64,000 nucleotides of DNA from Fusobacteriaceae bacterium (GCA_051652785.1 JBOFUX010000041.1:8471-72470), one strand, 5' to 3'. Positions 34,647 to 64,000 are shown, counted from the stretch's first letter. Notes: a model not told the origin generated them from the sequence alone. A program made the numbers and translations.

Positions 34647-35546
34647 TTACCAATGTCCTTTTTCTTCTTCTCTATTTGATGTATATATTTTTATGTTTTT
34701 TATTTTTGAGAGTTCCTCATTAAATAATTGTACAAAAGTTACTGAACGGTGTTTTCCACCACTACAACCAAAGCCTATAGATAGATGTTTTTTTCCTTCT
34801 TTAATATAATTGGGAATTAAAAATTTAATCATATCCATAAGTCTATTATAAAATTCTTTTGAAACTTCACTATCCATAACATAATCTTGAACGTCTTTGT
34901 CTTTTCCATTTTTTATTTTTAATTCTTTTATATAGTATGGATTCGGCAAAAACCTTACATCAAAAACTAAATCTAAATCTATAGGCATACCATATTTAAA
35001 ACCAAAAGATTGAAGATGAATATTTAGTTCATTTAAATCTTTATTTTTCAAATAATAATTTTCTTTAATTTTTTCTCCTAATTGTTTAGCAGAGAGATAA
35101 GATGTGTCAATTATTTTTGTAGCTCTTTCTCTAATTCCATACATAATATCTCGTTCGTTTTTTATATTTTCTAAAAGTGTAGAAAATTCAAGAGGATGTT
35201 TTCTTCTTGTTAAATTATATCTATTTAAAATCATTTCATCTGAAGCCTCTAAAAATATTATTTCATTATTTGGAATCATCTCTTTTACAAAATCTAAAAA
35301 TTCTAAATATTCTGAAATTTCTTCAAATGATCTTATATCTAAACCTATTGCTATTTTATTTATTTTACCTTTTTTTATTCTTAATTCCTTGTGATTAACA
35401 CTATATTTTTCAATTATAAATTTACTTAATGTACAAGGTAGATTATCCATAGTTAAATAGTCCATATCTTCTAAGAAATTTAAAACTGATGTTTTTCCAG
35501 CACCACTTAGTCCTGTTACAATTACTAAACTTTCTATTGCTATCAT
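34647..35546 (-). CDS. rapZ: RNase adapter protein RapZ (YvcJ)
   Basis: 299 aa with the P-loop GLSGAGKTS and C-terminal GCSGGKHRSV. Confidence 0.9.
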   Translation of the reverse strand: MIAIESLVIVTGLSGAGKTSVLNFLEDMDYLTMDNLPCTLSKFIIEKYSVNHKELRIKKGKINKIAIGLDIRSFEEISEYLEFLDFVKEMIPNNEIIFLEASDEMILNRYNLTRRKHPLEFSTLLENIKNERDIMYGIRERATKIIDTSYLSAKQLGEKIKENYYLKNKDLNELNIHLQSFGFKYGMPIDLDLVFDVRFLPNPYYIKELKIKNGKDKDVQDYVMDSEVSKEFYNRLMDMIKFLIPNYIKEGKKHLSIGFGCSGGKHRSVTFVQLFNEELSKIKNIKIYTSNREEEKGHW

Positions 35547-35598: not shown

Positions 35599-37323
35599 TT
35601 ACATTCTCTCTAAAGTCTTTATTCCTAAAAGAGATAATCCTATTTTTAGTGTTTCTGAAGTTAAGCTCGCTAGTAAAAGTCGAGATTGTAATATAGTGGC
35701 TTCTTGATTTAGAATAGGACAACTATTATAAAAACTATTGAATTTTTTAGAAAGTTCAAAAATATAATCTGCAATTAAATTTGGCTTACAAGTTTCAGCT
35801 GCTTTTAATACTAAATTATTAAATAATGTTAATTGATGTGCGAGGACTCTTTCTTCTACATTTATAAAATTAATAGCATGGTTAAGGTCTATTGTTATTC
35901 CCTTTTCTTCAGCTTTTCTTATAATTGATTTTATCCTAGCATAGGCATATTGTAAGTAGGGTGCTGTATTTCCTTCAAAACTTAATACTTTATCCCATTC
36001 AAAAACAACAGCACTCTGTCTATTTTGCGAAAGATCCGCATATTTTATAGCTCCCATTCCCACCACTTCTGCTATCATATTTTTTTCTTCTTCTGATAAA
36101 GTTGGATTTTTTTCATTTACAACAGTATAAGCCCTTGTTTTTCCTTCATCTAATAGCTGTTCAAGTTTTATCACATTTCCTTTTCTCGTTGAAAATACTC
36201 CATCAGCAAATCTCATAATTCCAAACCAAATATGTTGTTTTTCTACTTCCCAACCTAATTTTTCTGTTATTTTAAACAATTGTTTGAAATGATCTTGTTG
36301 TCTTTCATCTGTTAAATATATTAATTTATTTACATCATAGGTACCCAGTTTATATTTTATTGTAGCAATATCAGAGGTTGAATACAAAAATGCGCCATCA
36401 CTTTTTTGTACTAAACATGGATTAAGCTTTTCCTCTTCAGAGAATATTACTACTTTTGCTCCTTCACTCTCTACTGCTATTTTTCTTTCCAATAGCTCTG
36501 TTATAACACCTGGCATTATATCATTGTAAAAAGATTCACCATTATAAACATCAAATTTTACATCCATTCTATCATACATTTTATTATACTCATTTAAAGA
36601 AACTTCAATAAATTCTTTCCACAATCTACTGTTCTCAGTTTCTCCATCTTGTAATTTTTTTAGTTCTAATCTAGCTTGTTCTTCAAGAAACGGTTCTTTT
36701 TCAGTTCTATTAGAAAACTCCACATAAACTCTTTCTAGTTCCTCTATTGGATTTAGTTTATACGCATCTTTGTCTAACCAATTTCTATATCCTATTATAA
36801 GTTTTCCAAACTGTGTTCCCCAGTCTCCAATATGATTATCTGCTATGGTTTCATAACCTAAATAGTTATAAATTCTTTTTACAGAGTCTCCAATAATTGT
36901 TGATCTCAAATGTCCTATATGCATTCTTTTCGCTATATTAGGGGAAGAATAATCAATTATAACTTTTCCTTTTCTATTTAAAAAAGAAAAATCTATACCT
37001 TCTTTTATAACTTTTTTTACATACTCACCTAAAAATTTATTTTTTAAATATATATTTATAAATCCAGGACCTGCTATTTCTAATTTTTCAATAATATTAT
37101 TTTCTAATAAATTTTTAACAACTTCCTCTGCTATAGATTTAGGATTTTTTCCTAATATTTTAGTATTCATCATAGCAAAATTTGTTTGAAAATCACCAAA
37201 CTTTTCATTGGTTGCTACAGTTATTTCCACTGCTTTAAATGCTGATTCAGGATATATTATTCTCATGGTAGCTTCAAATATTTCAGCAATTTCTTTATCT
37301 ATTAATTTAACCAAATTATTCAC
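35599..37323 (-). CDS. argS: Arginine--tRNA ligase
   Basis: 574 aa with the class I HIGH motif (MHIGHLRS) and a C-terminal DALR anticodon-binding pattern. GTG start with AAGAG upstream. Confidence 0.95.
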   Translation of the reverse strand: MNNLVKLIDKEIAEIFEATMRIIYPESAFKAVEITVATNEKFGDFQTNFAMMNTKILGKNPKSIAEEVVKNLLENNIIEKLEIAGPGFINIYLKNKFLGEYVKKVIKEGIDFSFLNRKGKVIIDYSSPNIAKRMHIGHLRSTIIGDSVKRIYNYLGYETIADNHIGDWGTQFGKLIIGYRNWLDKDAYKLNPIEELERVYVEFSNRTEKEPFLEEQARLELKKLQDGETENSRLWKEFIEVSLNEYNKMYDRMDVKFDVYNGESFYNDIMPGVITELLERKIAVESEGAKVVIFSEEEKLNPCLVQKSDGAFLYSTSDIATIKYKLGTYDVNKLIYLTDERQQDHFKQLFKITEKLGWEVEKQHIWFGIMRFADGVFSTRKGNVIKLEQLLDEGKTRAYTVVNEKNPTLSEEEKNMIAEVVGMGAIKYADLSQNRQSAVVFEWDKVLSFEGNTAPYLQYAYARIKSIIRKAEEKGITIDLNHAINFINVEERVLAHQLTLFNNLVLKAAETCKPNLIADYIFELSKKFNSFYNSCPILNQEATILQSRLLLASLTSETLKIGLSLLGIKTLERM

Positions 37324-37370: not shown

Positions 37371-37396
37371 AAAAAAAAATGGGCATTATTGCCCAA
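37371..37396 (-). terminator. Intrinsic terminator ending the structured RNA upstream of argS
   Basis: Minus strand reads UUGGGCAAUAAUGCCCA followed by U9. It lies 47 nt upstream of the argS start. Confidence 0.7.
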
Positions 37397-37610
37397 TTAA
37401 AGAATAAATCCAACTTACCGCCTTCAGTATAGTTTTAGTCGCCAGTACTATACGGTGGTAACCAGTTCCAATTTATGTACAGGGTCCGTAAACCAAAAGG
37501 GGTTTCGTGACTTAACTGATGTATAAAAAGCAGCGCCAGTTCCAGTGACGACATTAGGCCCAAAACCTCGTGAAAATAGCGTATAAGCCAGATTTTTCTT
37601 ATTCTTTAAT
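37396..37610 (-). ncRNA. Unclassified structured RNA (argS leader or independent sRNA) with a long 5'/3' closing helix
   Basis: Visibly more G+C-rich than the flanks. It has its own promoter and terminator. The 5' and 3' ends pair over about 27 bp: 12 perfect bp, then 10 bp including three G-U pairs, then 5 bp. There is also an internal 7-bp hairpin. See findings. Confidence 0.5.
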
Positions 37611-37612
37611 GG

Positions 37613-37641
37613 ATTATAACATTAAAAAAAATTTTTTTCAA
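37613..37641 (-). promoter_or_regulatory. Near-consensus sigma70 promoter (TTGAAA-17-TATAAT)
   Basis: Minus strand has TTGAAA (37636-37641), a 17-nt spacer, then TATAAT (37613-37618). It lies just after the aspS stop and a few nt before the RNA closing helix. Confidence 0.6.
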
Positions 37642-37658: not shown

Positions 37659-39446
37659 TTATATTTTGTTTTTATCTTCTTCTAATATAACTTTTAATGA
37701 AAGTTCCATCAATTGTTTTTCATCTACTTTTCCAGGTGCTTCTGTCATTAAACACTGCCCTTTATTTGTCTTAGGAAAAGGTATTACGTCTCTTATTGAA
37801 GTTTCTTTTAGCATTACCATAAGCCATCTATCTATTCCAAATGCCAAACCACCATGAGGTGGTGCTCCATATTTAAATGCATCTATGAAAAAACCAAACT
37901 TATCTCTTGCTTCTTCCGCTGAAAGTCCTAACTTTTCAAAAACTCTAGCTTGAACTTCTGGATTAAAAATTCTAATAGAACCTCCCCCAATCTCAGAACC
38001 GTTTAAAACCATATCATAAGAATTAGTTCTAATATCTTCCATCTCACCAGACATAAATAATTCCATATCCTCTGTTTTTATTGATGTAAAAGGGTGATGT
38101 TGTGCTTGGTATCTGCCCTCCTCCTCAGAATATTCAAACATTGGAAAATCAACTATCCATAAGAATTTAAACTCATTATTATTTATAAGATTCAGTTCTT
38201 TCCCTATTTTTAGTCTAAGTGCACCTAAAGCTCCAAATACAATTTTTTTTGTATCTGCTATAATTAATATTATATCTCCTACAACCGCTCCACTTCTATT
38301 AACTATAGCTTTCATTTTTTCTTCAGTAAAAAACTTTGCCACAGGGGAATTAACTCCCTCTTCTGTTATTTTTATGTATGCCATTCCCTTTGCACTAAAA
38401 TATGTTTTAGCATAATCTTCATATTCTCCAATCATTTTTCTGCTAAATTTTTCCGCAGCTCCTGGTGCAACAATACATTTTACTACTCCACCATTTTCTA
38501 CACAATTCTTAAATGCTGTAAATTCTCCATCTTTCACTATATCTGTTAAATCTTTTAACTCTACATCAAATCTTACATCTGGTTTATCTGAACCGTATCT
38601 TTCCATAGCTTCAAAATATGGCATTCTTTCAAATGAATAATTGGCTTCTTCTCCTGTTACATTTTTAAAAACTCTTTTTGCTAGCCCCTCTATTGTATCC
38701 ATTATATCATTTTGAGTTACAAAGGACATCTCTATATCTAGTTGAGTAAATTCAGGCTGTCTGTCTGCTCTTAAATCTTCATCTCTGAAACATTTAGCTA
38801 TTTGAAAATATTTTTCTATTCCACCTATCATAAGCAATTGCTTAAATAGTTGTGGAGATTGAGGTAAAGCATAAAACTCCCCTTGAGATATTCTACTTGG
38901 CACTAAGAAATCTCTTGCTCCTTCTGGAGTTGATTTTGTTAAAATAGGAGTATCAATATCTAAAAATTCTTGTTCATCCATATAATTTCTTATTGACATA
39001 ATCATTTTATGTCTCATTTTAAGATTATTTAACATTTGTGGTCTTCTCATATCTAAATATCTGTATTTTAATCTCATAGTTTCACTTACATTTTCATTTC
39101 CTGAAACTTGAAAAGGTAAAACATCACAAGGATTTAAAATTTCCAATTCAGTTGCAAATATTTCTATTTCCCCTGTTGGTATATTCATATTTTTACTATA
39201 TCTCTCTCTTACTATTCCTGAAACTGTTATAACAGATTCATTTTTTAATTTTTGAGCTGATTCTACTATTTCTTTTGCTACTACATCTATATCAAAAATT
39301 ATTTGAGTTTTTCCCTCTCTATCTCTTAAATCTATAAAAGTTAGACCACCTAAATCTCTTTTTGTATCTATCCAACCTGATAACGTTACTTTTTCTCCAA
39401 CATTGTTAAGTCTTAACTCTCCTAAATTATGCGTTTTATAAATCAT
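37659..39446 (-). CDS. aspS: Aspartate--tRNA ligase
   Basis: 595 aa, class IIb, with [18 protein letters not shown] and GLAFGIDR. Confidence 0.95.
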
Positions 39447-40681
39447 ACTAATCTCTCCTTTATTTCTTCTAATGTAAGTTCAAACTGTTCTCTATTTTTA
39501 AAGTTTTTTAATAGATACTTTTTATTGTCTATTTCATTCTTCCCTATTAATATAGTATATTCAACACCTAATTTATCAGCTTTTTTCATCTGTGCTTTTA
39601 TGCTTTTTTCAGAATATTCCACTACAGTTTTTATTCCACTTACTCTCAATTCATTAGCTATTTTCATTGCTACCTCTATACTTTCATCACCTACCCAAGC
39701 TATATAAACCTTAGGTAAATTCAAAGGGAAATCATCTAAAAGCATCATAATTCTCTCTACTCCTGCAGCATAACCAAAAGCTGGTATTTCTTTATCACCT
39801 AGTTGTTTTAATAAATTATCGTATCTTCCACCACCTAATACAGTTCCTTGAGCACCTAATTTATTTGTTATAACTTCATAAACAGTTCCAGAATAATAAT
39901 CTAGTCCTCTTACAAGTCTTGAATCTTCTCTATAATTTATTTCAAATATTTTTAAATATTTTTTTAGCTCTTCATAGTGATTTTTTTCCTCTTTATCTAA
40001 TGAATCAATTATACTAGGGGCATCTTTAGTCAGAGATTTACATTTTTCATTTTTACAATCCAACACCCTTAGAGGATTATTTTCTTTTCTATTTTTACAA
40101 TCTTCACATAATTCTTCTTCCAGTGGTTTTAAAAACTTTAGAAGCTCATTTCTATATCTAGAACGAGAGTCACTTCCTCCAACAGAATTTATTACAAGTT
40201 CTAAATCTGTTATTTTAATTTTTTCTAAAAATTTATAACTCATAGCAATAACTTCTGCATCCAGTATTGGTGAACTTTCACCTAATACCTCTACACCTAT
40301 TTGATTAAACTCTCTCTGTCTTCCAGCTTGAGGTCTTTCATATCTAAACATAGAACCAATATAATAAAATCTGCTTATTTCTTCATGTCCATAAATTTTA
40401 TTTTCTAAATAAGCTCTCACCACTGAAGCCGTTCCTTCGGGTCTTAAAGTTATACTTCTATCTCCCTTATCCATGAAAGTATACATTTCTTTATCTACAA
40501 CATCTGTTCCTTCTCCTATGCCTCTTTTAAACAATGCTGTCTCTTCAAAGATTGGAGTTTTTATCATTCCATAACCATAGTTATCAAAAAATTTTGCTGC
40601 ATTTTCTGTCACATAATTATATTTTATACTTGTAGTTCCATATATATCTTTAGTTCCTCTGACACCTTTTATAAGTTCCAT
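39443..40681 (-). CDS. hisS: Histidine--tRNA ligase
   Basis: 412 aa with [17 protein letters not shown] and GGGRYD. It has a 4-nt overlap with aspS. Confidence 0.95.
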
Positions 40682-40694
40682 ATTTTACCTCTCT

Positions 40695-41927
40695 TTATTT
40701 AATTTTCCATAAATTTTCTTGTTTTTCCTTTATTAACTTTTCATTTCTGTTATCTCCTGGGATGTAGTAACAACCATATTTTTCTGAGTATTTCTGGATA
40801 ACAAAATTATTTGGAAAGTCATGAGGATATTTATATCCTTGTGCATTTGAATCTATATGCTTTGGAACTTTTTCAATTTCATTTTTTTTTAAATCTTCTA
40901 ATACATTATTTATAGCATTATAGCACGAAGGACTTTTTGAAGATATAGCTAAATAAATAGTCACTTGTGCTAATATTATTCTAATTTCAGGCATTCCTAT
41001 TTTTTCACTTGCTGTTAGAGCTGAAGTTGCCATGAGAAGTGCCTCAGGATTTGCCATTCCAATATCCTCACTGGCTAAAACAGTTAATCTCCTTGCTATA
41101 TATCTGGGATCTTCCCCACCATTTAAAAGTTGTCCCATCCAATAAACTGAACTATCTGGATCACTTCCTCTTATACTTTTTATCATAGCTGAAATTATAT
41201 TATATTTATCCTCTTCTTTATTAAAACTAGATTTTCTTTCAGTGAAAACTTCTAAAAGTTCTTCAGTATCTAAATCTTTCCCTACATTTCCATATAACTC
41301 TAAATAGTTTATAGCTATTCTGCTATCTCCTCTAGACATGGAAATTATTATTTCTATTAATTTTTCTGGTATATTATTTAAATTCAAATATTTTATGCCT
41401 CTTTTTAATATTAATTCTATATTATAACTAGTCAGAGGTTTAAACTCAAATACTAAAACCCTTGATAGAAGAGCATTATTCAAATTATAATATGGATTTT
41501 CTGTAGTGGCGCCTATTAATATTATAGTTCCAGATTCAGTGCTAGAAAGAAGAGAATCTTGTTGTAATTTATTAAATCTATGAATTTCATCTAAAAATAA
41601 TATTGTTTTTTTTCCATAATATTCTAGATTTTTTTTTGCTTTTTCTATTACTAGTTTTAACTCAGCAACTCCTGATGTTGTTGCATTTAAAATTTCAAAA
41701 TTATATGATAGTTCCTTAGATATGATTTCACCTAAAGAGGTTTTTCCCACTCCTGGTGGTCCGTAAAATACTGAATTAGTTAGCTTCTTTTGCTCTATAA
41801 GTTTTCTCAAAACTTTACCATCACCTAAAATTTTATCTTGACCTACAAAATCATCTAAAGATGTGGGTCTTAATTTTAAAGCCAGTGGCTGAAAATTTTT
41901 ATGATTATCACTAAATATATTTTTCAT
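40695..41927 (-). CDS. rarA: Replication-associated recombination protein A (AAA+ ATPase)
   Basis: Contains GPPGVGKTS and LFLDEIHRFNK. I prefer the ATG at 41927 (GAGGGA RBS 5 nt upstream) over the longer TTG-initiated ORF ending at 41948. Confidence 0.9.
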   Translation of the reverse strand: MKNIFSDNHKNFQPLALKLRPTSLDDFVGQDKILGDGKVLRKLIEQKKLTNSVFYGPPGVGKTSLGEIISKELSYNFEILNATTSGVAELKLVIEKAKKNLEYYGKKTILFLDEIHRFNKLQQDSLLSSTESGTIILIGATTENPYYNLNNALLSRVLVFEFKPLTSYNIELILKRGIKYLNLNNIPEKLIEIIISMSRGDSRIAINYLELYGNVGKDLDTEELLEVFTERKSSFNKEEDKYNIISAMIKSIRGSDPDSSVYWMGQLLNGGEDPRYIARRLTVLASEDIGMANPEALLMATSALTASEKIGMPEIRIILAQVTIYLAISSKSPSCYNAINNVLEDLKKNEIEKVPKHIDSNAQGYKYPHDFPNNFVIQKYSEKYGCYYIPGDNRNEKLIKEKQENLWKIK

Positions 41928-41940
41928 TTGTCCCTCTCTA

Positions 41941-41975
41941 AAAAACAAAAGGCGTATTGACTGGCAATACGCCTC
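41941..41975 (-). terminator. Intrinsic terminator after secG
   Basis: AGGCGTATTG (41950-41959) pairs with CAATACGCCT (41965-41974), followed on the minus strand by TTTTGTTTTT. Confidence 0.65.
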
Positions 41976-41980
41976 TTACA

Positions 41981-42217
41981 TTATTTTATAATATATAGAA
42001 CAAGTGCAGAAACTACAAATATTATTGCAGCTATTGTTGTTGCTTTAGCTAGTGGTCCCCCATCCTTCGATATACCAAAAATTGTTGTAGAAGCTCCTGA
42101 TCCCATACTAGACGTCATTCCGTTTGTTCTATCTGGTTGAATAAGAACTAATCCTATTAAAGCTACCGCAGATATAAAAAGTACCACTGTTACTAAACTT
42201 TCCATATTTTCCTCCAT
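41981..42217 (-). CDS. secG: Preprotein translocase subunit SecG
   Basis: 78 aa with two TM segments flanking a Gly/Ser-rich loop, which is typical SecG size and pattern. Confidence 0.8.
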   Translation of the reverse strand: MEENMESLVTVVLFISAVALIGLVLIQPDRTNGMTSSMGSGASTTIFGISKDGGPLAKATTIAAIIFVVSALVLYIIK

Positions 42218-60556: not shown

Positions 60557-60650
60557 GGAAGCGGATGGGTAACTGGTGTTCCCTCCAGTCTTCAAAACTG
60601 CGTTAGCGACTCTGGTCGTTGGTAGGTTCGATTCCTACACGCTTCCGCCA
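60557..60650 (+). tRNA. selC: tRNA-Sec (anticodon UCA) with encoded CCA
   Basis: GGAAGCGG…CUUCAAA (anticodon loop with UCA)… a long variable arm GCGUUAGCGACUCUGGUCGUUGG … GGUUCGAUUCC T-arm … CGCUUCC-G-CCA. Length 94 nt. Confidence 0.9.
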
Positions 60651-63809: not shown

Positions 63810-63845
63810 AAATTGATCCATAAAAAAATAGAAATATTTTTTTTA

Positions 63846-63961
63846 CTTCTCTCATCCAGACTATTACTGTCGGTTTTGGAATTTCACCAAATCAAGCCTA
63901 AGCTTCGCGGACTATCACCGCCGGTTGGGAATTGTAATTTTCTCACTCACCCACCCCGAAG
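63846..63961 (-). ncRNA. FMN riboswitch (RFN element)
   Basis: Minus strand reads CTTCGGGGTGGGTGAG…TTCCCAACCGGCGGTGATAGTCCGCGAAGC…TTGATTTGGTGAAATTCCAAAACCGACAGTAATAGTCTGGATGAGAGAAG. This matches the conserved RFN blocks. Confidence 0.85.
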
Positions 63962-64000
63962 TATATATTGTTATATTAAATAATATGATAAAAAAAAATA

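Follow-up and report, generated by a model that had tools for sequence, protein, structure and literature searches.

A predicted 6S RNA gene, in a diverged form missed by the Rfam model, between aspS and argS of Fusobacteriaceae

We found that the RNA encoded between aspS and argS on the minus strand of a 64,000-nt stretch of Fusobacteriaceae DNA (GCA_051652785.1, JBOFUX010000041.1:8471-72470; hereafter the window) is very probably the product of a 6S RNA gene (ssrS), predicted from its sequence to be a diverged Fusobacteriaceae version. The assignment is one of transitive profile homology, without a direct Rfam match: RF00013, the 6S model of Rfam, accepts related RNAs, and a reciprocal model built from that group matches the window. 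On this assignment the RNA belongs to a known class and represents neither a new regulatory principle nor a novel argS regulator; of note are an annotation gap, the synteny of hisS, aspS and 6S in Firmicutes and Fusobacteriota, and a possible co-transcription of 6S with argS. A preliminary description of the window had held that the RNA fits no known class, which is correct only in that the Rfam model fails to score this copy and is otherwise contradicted by the homology to 6S RNA. The coordinates of the features and of the neighbouring genes are collected in Table 1.

Table 1. Features of the predicted 6S RNA gene and its neighbours in the window
Feature	Position	Strand	Sequence or remark
Sigma-70-type promoter of the 6S gene	37613..37641	-	TTGAAA (37641-37636), 17 nt spacer, (TGn)TATAAT (37618-37613)
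Predicted 6S primary transcript	37372..37606	-	~235 nt; core matched full-length by R1 and also matched by R2
Intrinsic terminator	37371..37395	-	UGGGCA-AUAA-UGCCCA then U9
Outer closing stem, 5' strand	37599..37610	-	AUUAAAGAAUAA; pairs with 37396-37407, 12 perfect bp
Outer closing stem, 3' strand	37396..37407	-	UUAUUCUUUAAU; read from the sequence
Closing stem P1, 5' strand	37578..37592	-	UCUGGCUUAUACGCU; pairs with 37409-37422
Closing stem P1, 3' strand	37409..37422	-	GGCGGUAAGUUGGA; covariation, mapped onto the window
Helix P2, 5' strand	37560..37567	-	GGUUUUGG; pairs with 37431-37438; bubble border on the closing-stem side
Helix P2, 3' strand	37431..37438	-	CUAAAACU; covariation, mapped onto the window
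Central bubble, 5' strand	37544..37559	-	GCCUAAUGUCGUCACU; 16 nt; predicted template strand
Central bubble, 3' strand	37439..37456	-	ACCGUAUAGUACUGGCGA; 18 nt; starts with conserved CCAC-(Y)UAU
Apical (upstream-like) arm	37457..37543	-	P3 8 bp, CGC bulge, P4 11 bp, P5 CAG/CUG, P6 hairpin
rarA-like gene	40695-41948	-	NCBIfam
hisS	39443-40681	-	NCBIfam
aspS, upstream neighbour of the RNA	37659..39446	-	NCBIfam
argS, downstream neighbour of the RNA	35599..37323	-	NCBIfam; probable start TTG 37314
rapZ	34647-35546	-	NCBIfam

Homology to 6S RNA

The comparison with Rfam suggested in the preliminary description gave neither a T-box nor a 6S match: at the gathering thresholds of Rfam 15 nothing was found at the window RNA, and at E<=10 only chance matches appeared there. 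At the same E-value limit, the copy in F. nucleatum likewise matched neither family, and no riboswitch or other Rfam family of relevance turned up for either copy. The gathering score of RF00013 (6S/SsrS) is 46.4 bits, and neither the window copy nor the F. nucleatum copy attained it.

The connection to 6S RNA was found through homologues. When 80 argS loci taken from reference genomes were searched by nhmmer, 57 proved to have the RNA immediately ahead of argS, L052 and L053 with marginal matches only; the carriers were members of Fusobacterium (including F. nucleatum), Cetobacterium, Ilyobacter and other Fusobacteriaceae. A non-redundant alignment of 33 Fusobacteriaceae sequences (A1/A2) served as the basis of a covariance model, R1, which matched the core of the window RNA (37407-37594, minus strand) with 172 bits. 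In addition, metagenomes were scanned with a pattern derived from the most conserved motif, yielding 80 loci, in 79 of which R1 gave a full-length match; the RNA of locus L105 and about 40 related metagenome RNAs were matched over their full length with 95-113 bits. RF00013 itself matched the RNA of L105 (5209-5411) full-length with 51.5 bits and those of ten further loci (L121, L086, L157, L125, L100, L112, L153, L141, L123 and L093) with 47.4-53.9 bits, all eleven matches falling at exactly the coordinates given by R1. We then used a reciprocal model, R2, built solely from 16 RNAs of this Rfam-passing group (alignment A4). R2 gave a single match in the 64 kb of the window, at 37403-37597 on the minus strand (92.3 bits, E of about 6e-21), and matched every Fusobacteriaceae locus tested with 70-113 bits. 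The window RNA is thus homologous to RNAs that Rfam itself accepts as 6S RNA.

The 6S model of Rfam and the pipelines that depend on it miss the entire Fusobacteriaceae branch, comprising Fusobacterium, Cetobacterium, Ilyobacter and relatives, and because of this an RNA without a family seems to be encoded in the most G+C-rich intergenic element near argS. Inclusion of Fusobacteriaceae sequences in the 6S seed alignment would close this annotation gap. The high G+C content emphasized in the preliminary description was borne out, the RNA core having 43% G+C against 27% for the whole window, and a 200-nt segment on the RNA (41.5% G+C) lying at the 99.8th percentile among all such segments of the window.

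Promoter, terminator and rod structure

The near-consensus promoter and the clean intrinsic terminator reported earlier are both present. The promoter matches 11 of the 12 consensus positions, with TG preceding TATAAT, and comparable TTGACA/TATAAT promoters lie upstream of homologues. The terminator stem-loop (37395-37380) has 6 bp, four of them G-C, and is followed by U9. We predict the 5' end of the transcript from the location of the -10 box and its 3' end from the U-run. In the window the terminator is separate from the closing stem of the RNA, while in the F. nucleatum copy, as in the free-standing homologues described below, the U-run lies directly 3' of the closing stem itself. Folding of the window transcript gave a minimum free energy of -64.1 kcal/mol (z = -3.0), as good a value being reached by 0 of 200 shuffles.

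The homologue search and covariation analysis proposed at the outset support a conserved structure. RNAalifold folded the 33 sequences into a consensus of 56 pairs, with compensatory changes at 30; on A2, 95.5% of the cells are paired, all five measures beat each of 500 shuffles, and slid controls all drop to 30-48% paired. In a merged alignment of 64 sequences from both of the subtypes described below (A3), 41 of 58 pairs are compensatory and 91.7% of the cells are paired. R1 contains no branch points, and the RNA is an unbranched rod in which the central bubble separates a closing stem from an apical one, i.e., the covarying rod with a large bubble that characterizes 6S RNA. The preliminary description had likened the closing helix to that of 6S RNA while seeing no bubble by eye; the likeness stands, and the bubble does exist, between two covarying arms.

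The extensive pairing of the two ends was readable in the sequence as described, with 12 perfect bp, a 5-nt bulge (GAAAA) and a further 10 bp, three of them G-U, between AUCUGGCUUA (37593-37584) and UAAGUUGGAU (37417-37408). The AAGAAUAA/UUAUUCUU pairing of the outer stem is retained in Cetobacterium. On A2, P1 has 13 pairs, seven of them compensatory, with 95.6% of cells paired, and on A3 compensatory changes occur in 10 of 11 pairs. An internal loop separates P1 from P2; a helix considered within this loop was set aside, since its registers differ by lineage and column-by-column assessment is impossible. P2 is paired in 96-98% of cells, with compensatory changes from U-A to C-G. Beyond the bubble, P3 is paired in 99% of cells, and P4, which is variable in sequence and fixed in length, shows compensatory changes in 8 to 10 of its 11 pairs. 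An invariant motif in the apical arm, UCAG..GUCACG / ACGGAYYCUGUA, lies 19-25 bp above the bubble, a spacing equal to the distance from the -10 to the -35 box of a promoter.

Three other candidate elements were not retained. The 7-bp hairpin GUAUAGU/ACUAUAC (37453-37447 with 37433-37427) noted earlier is present in the window, and it failed as a conserved element: its cells are paired in 65% of cases, a level equalled by 102 of 500 shuffles, and it overlaps and competes with the 3' strand of the conserved P2. A GGGCC/GG(A)CCC pseudoknot, noticed by eye, clashes with three covarying helices. Finally, ACG, CGA or CGG in GUCACG...ACGGA might be read as a specifier-like Arg codon or anticodon mimic; however, the two segments are engaged in pairing (P6), and they are just as invariant in copies remote from argS.

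The two subtypes, the Fusobacteriaceae RNAs and the Rfam-passing group, differ mainly in the central bubble, whose 5' and 3' strands measure 16-20 nt and 17-23 nt, respectively, in the 64 homologues. In the Rfam-passing group the 5' bubble strand is U-rich (GGCUUUACUCUUUUUUAAU), that of L105 aligning with the consensus bubble of Rfam 6S RNA, and the 3' bubble strand contains a hairpin of 6-7 bp, CCUGUAA/UUACAGG. Such a small hairpin is common among 6S RNAs without being universal, and it is absent from the window copy and from Fusobacteriaceae. In the latter, GUCGYY (37547-37552) can pair with GGCGAC (37438-37443) across the bubble to form 6 bp (A2 columns 46-51 with 167-172). Compensatory changes at this pairing occur in L023 and L006. 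The pairing competes with GCC/GGC, where P2 ends, and is absent in the Rfam-passing subtype; on A3 it is 81% paired, and half of the sequences are unpaired at two positions, indicating that it is lineage-specific. If real, the cross-bubble pairing would narrow or partly close the bubble in the free RNA, so that, on this structural model, the Fusobacteriaceae RNA could be a closed-bubble variant of 6S RNA. The lack of the 3'-strand hairpin and the cross-bubble pairing plausibly explain why RF00013 misses the window copy.

A terminator-like hairpin was also flagged inside the RNA, at 37534-37550 on the minus strand (CGUCACUGGAACUGGCG then CUGCUUUUUA) and at the same place in F. nucleatum (L054 2835-2850, plus strand). 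It competes with P3 and with the cross-bubble pairing, and may represent a co-transcriptional folding intermediate or may have arisen by chance.

In one locus of an uncultured Fusobacteriaceae bacterium (L059, CAZFBB010000089.1), two 6S-type RNAs occur in tandem between aspS and argS, at 1315-1501 and 1518-1709, 16 nt apart. With R1 the first, a member of the divergent subtype of L052, L053 and L139, scores 82 bits and the second, a canonical copy, 155 bits, and a promoter is visible upstream of the first only. The tandem recalls the 6S-1 and 6S-2 paralogues of Bacillus, although the L059 pair is arranged as a dimer.

Genomic context and relation to argS

The neighbours of the RNA, named by NCBIfam, are all on the minus strand, in the order hisS-aspS-RNA, then argS. 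Within 37312-37323 (minus strand), the argS start was previously placed at GTG 37323; TTG 37314 is more likely judging from the sequence, since homologues align only from residue 4 of the ORF beginning at that GTG, and GAGGTG resembles the ribosome-binding site. The window gene, like the 6S genes of Bacillus and Staphylococcus, lies immediately downstream of hisS-aspS: bsrA, the gene for 6S-1 RNA in B. subtilis, is flanked by aspS and yrvM (PMC11077062), its position also being the subject of Suzuma 2002 as cited in PMC10578484, and the 6S gene of S. aureus is located downstream of the hisS-aspS operon (PMC3386247). The old gene order hisS-aspS-6S is thereby extended from Firmicutes to Fusobacteriota.

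Each of the 57 Fusobacteriaceae argS loci with the RNA has it directly upstream of argS, in the same orientation. Among the F. nucleatum group, where aspS is no longer upstream, the RNA is still separated from the start of argS by about 27 nt; for example, in F. nucleatum SB042 (L054 2751-3005), as well as in L046-L051, the closing stem and the U-run are followed about 27 nt on by the ribosome-binding site and ATG of argS, and no promoter-like site was found between RNA and argS in F. nucleatum, the promoter of the RNA being the sole one on the strand. This constancy, together with the order of promoter, structured RNA of about 200 nt, terminator and aminoacyl-tRNA synthetase gene, which is the layout of a T-box (RF00230), is what speaks for the RNA being a cis-acting leader or attenuator of argS, whether it were an operator bound by ArgRS, a T-box of divergent type or an RNA sensing arginine or tRNA-Arg, with termination at the U-run before argS under its control. 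We consider such a leader highly improbable, however, on several grounds. As the preliminary description had recognized, T-box features are lacking: in addition to the negative Rfam search, there is no T-box sequence, specifier loop or antiterminator, and the 5' and 3' ends are joined by a closing helix. The rod is unbranched, the closing stem, at more than 25 bp, has a stability too great for a switch, and no conserved pairing competes with the terminator. Furthermore, some homologues score above the Rfam threshold for 6S RNA, and neither aspS nor argS occurs within several kb of about 40 metagenome homologues (the group with 95-113 bits and 33-40% G+C). In the loci checked, the gene downstream of these is often convergent, such as tgt (L105), msrB (L092), a cobC-like phosphatase gene (L093) or a Crp/Fnr-like gene (L086), and other arrangements include gmhA-RNA-rapZ (L118) and aspS-RNA without argS (L121, L157). 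Conversely, the RNA is missing at the argS loci of Psychrilyobacter, Leptotrichia, Sneathia and Sebaldella, which gave no Rfam match to a T-box either. Neither mark of T-box membership, an Rfam match or an invariable position upstream of an amino-acid gene, was thus found, some homologues having no downstream synthetase gene at all.

Since its sequence and structure are kept while its neighbours change, the next gene often being convergent, the RNA is no leader but a separate gene, which has a strong promoter and a terminator, as each free-standing copy likewise has its own. Of the two options left by the preliminary description, an independent small RNA is therefore the one supported, by the copies far from argS and their convergent downstream genes, and a new cis-regulator of argS is not supported, in view of the same free-standing copies and of the Psychrilyobacter argS loci.

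Given the constant linkage and the spacing of about 27 nt in F. nucleatum, a secondary role of this 6S RNA gene in argS transcription is possible. In F. nucleatum argS has no apparent promoter of its own, and for this reason at least part of argS transcription probably stems from read-through from the 6S promoter. E. coli ssrS is co-transcribed with ygfA. The read-through predicted here also parallels B. subtilis 6S-1 molecules extended by sequences of the neighbouring aspS and yrvM mRNAs, which still bind the holoenzyme (PMC11077062). A stronger version, in which the Fusobacteriaceae 6S gene and argS form one transcription unit, with the argS promoter weak or absent and ArgRS synthesis dependent on read-through of the 6S terminator, and in which the closed-bubble variant may apply in addition, is offered tentatively and seems to us rather doubtful. 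If such a unit exists, the level of an essential tRNA synthetase would be coupled to the transcription, folding or processing of an RNA that regulates polymerase.

Other RNA genes were observed in the course of these searches. On the minus strand of the L104 contig, a tmRNA gene (1048-1333; Rfam, 58.7 bits) directly abuts a 6S homologue (874-1058). The sole Rfam matches at gathering threshold in the window were an FMN riboswitch (63840-63967, minus strand, 93 bits) and a selenocysteine tRNA (60557-60646, plus strand, 65.8 bits), and no T-box match was obtained anywhere in the 64 kb, including the region upstream of hisS-aspS (40682-42000, minus strand). The hisS-aspS operon of S. aureus is reported to be under the control of a T-box motif (PMC3386247).

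Predicted template, product RNA and function

6S RNA, a well-known housekeeping RNA, sequesters RNA polymerase by imitating an open promoter. Compared with the RNAs of RF00013 (E. coli SsrS and B. subtilis 6S-1, BsrA), the window RNA is alike in its length (~190-235 nt), its unbranched rod and central bubble, the G-C pairs flanking the bubble and its own sigma-70 promoter. It differs in lacking an Rfam match and a 3'-bubble hairpin, in the possible 6-bp pairing across the bubble, in its very conserved apical internal-loop motif and in directly abutting argS.

The product RNA of B. subtilis 6S-1 is 5'-GUUCGGUCAAAACU (PMC10578484), from which we deduced the template AGUUUUGACCGAAC. The corresponding stretch is GGUUUUGGGCCUAAU in the window and UUUUUGGGCUUUAC in the free-standing group; in this comparison, which on the B. 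subtilis side rests on the product-RNA sequence only, the predicted window template (in the region of the P2 5' strand) resembles that of 6S-1, both having a U-rich template strand followed by GGGCC/GACC.

By analogy with known 6S RNAs, the window RNA would dock in the active site and DNA channel of the holoenzyme containing the housekeeping, sigma-70-type factor, and would hold this holoenzyme back when growth slows. The apical arm may take the part of upstream DNA, its invariant motif lying where a -35 box would be expected, some two helical turns above the bubble; the 3' bubble strand, with its CCAC-YUAU start, may mimic the non-template strand of the -10 region; and the 5' bubble strand would be the template, with P2, P1 and the outer stem standing for downstream DNA. 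When nucleotides return, as after a nutrient upshift, polymerase would copy the 5' bubble strand into a short product RNA, starting at about 37551-37553 and running into P2, with the predicted sequence 5'-(AC)AUUAGGCCCAAAACC, a prediction that is testable. Copying would unzip P2, displace CUAAAACU, refold the RNA and free the polymerase. In some lineages (L023, L027, L052), the 3' strand of P2 can be drawn into an alternative hairpin, and the displaced strand may there refold with the 3' bubble strand; such a hairpin is not general across the homologues (mean z -1.3). In the structural model, the 7-bp hairpin of the window could be a refolding of the P2 strand of the same kind.

Alternatively, the RNA might be derived from 6S RNA and have acquired a different or an added function in Fusobacteriaceae, for example by serving mainly as the stable 5' part of a transcript shared with argS, or by binding a partner other than polymerase. 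The loss of the 3'-bubble-strand hairpin in the Fusobacteriaceae subtype, the gain of the GUCGYY/GGCGAC pairing with its compensatory changes, a similarity below any reportable Rfam 6S match, the tight linkage to argS and the genome with two subtypes in tandem would all be compatible with this idea, which we nevertheless regard as improbable: the template strand, the edges of the bubble and the motif at the -35 distance are the most conserved positions, co-transcription of a 6S RNA with a downstream gene has already been reported elsewhere (PMC11077062), and the 6S RNA of F. nucleatum binds RNA polymerase (PMC11039985).

Another rod-like, polymerase-associated RNA missed by standard 6S models is Ms1 of actinobacteria, a 6S-like RNA that binds core RNA polymerase and that the window RNA resembles in these respects, its own association with polymerase being predicted. 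We know of no profile link of Ms1 to true 6S RNAs, whereas the window family has one.

A 6S RNA of F. nucleatum was reportedly described by Ponath et al. in 2021. From the same bacterial family as the window RNA, the F. nucleatum 6S RNA pulls down RNA polymerase subunits and yields product RNAs (PMC11039985, Zhu et al. 2024). Two unnamed F. nucleatum motifs, HRC-7-1 and HRC-7-2, are given in Brewer 2021 (PMC8632094). The published 6S RNA is likely to be that of the locus upstream of argS, the orthologue at L054 2791-2976, which is the sole 6S-type RNA of F. nucleatum that our models found in the loci examined.
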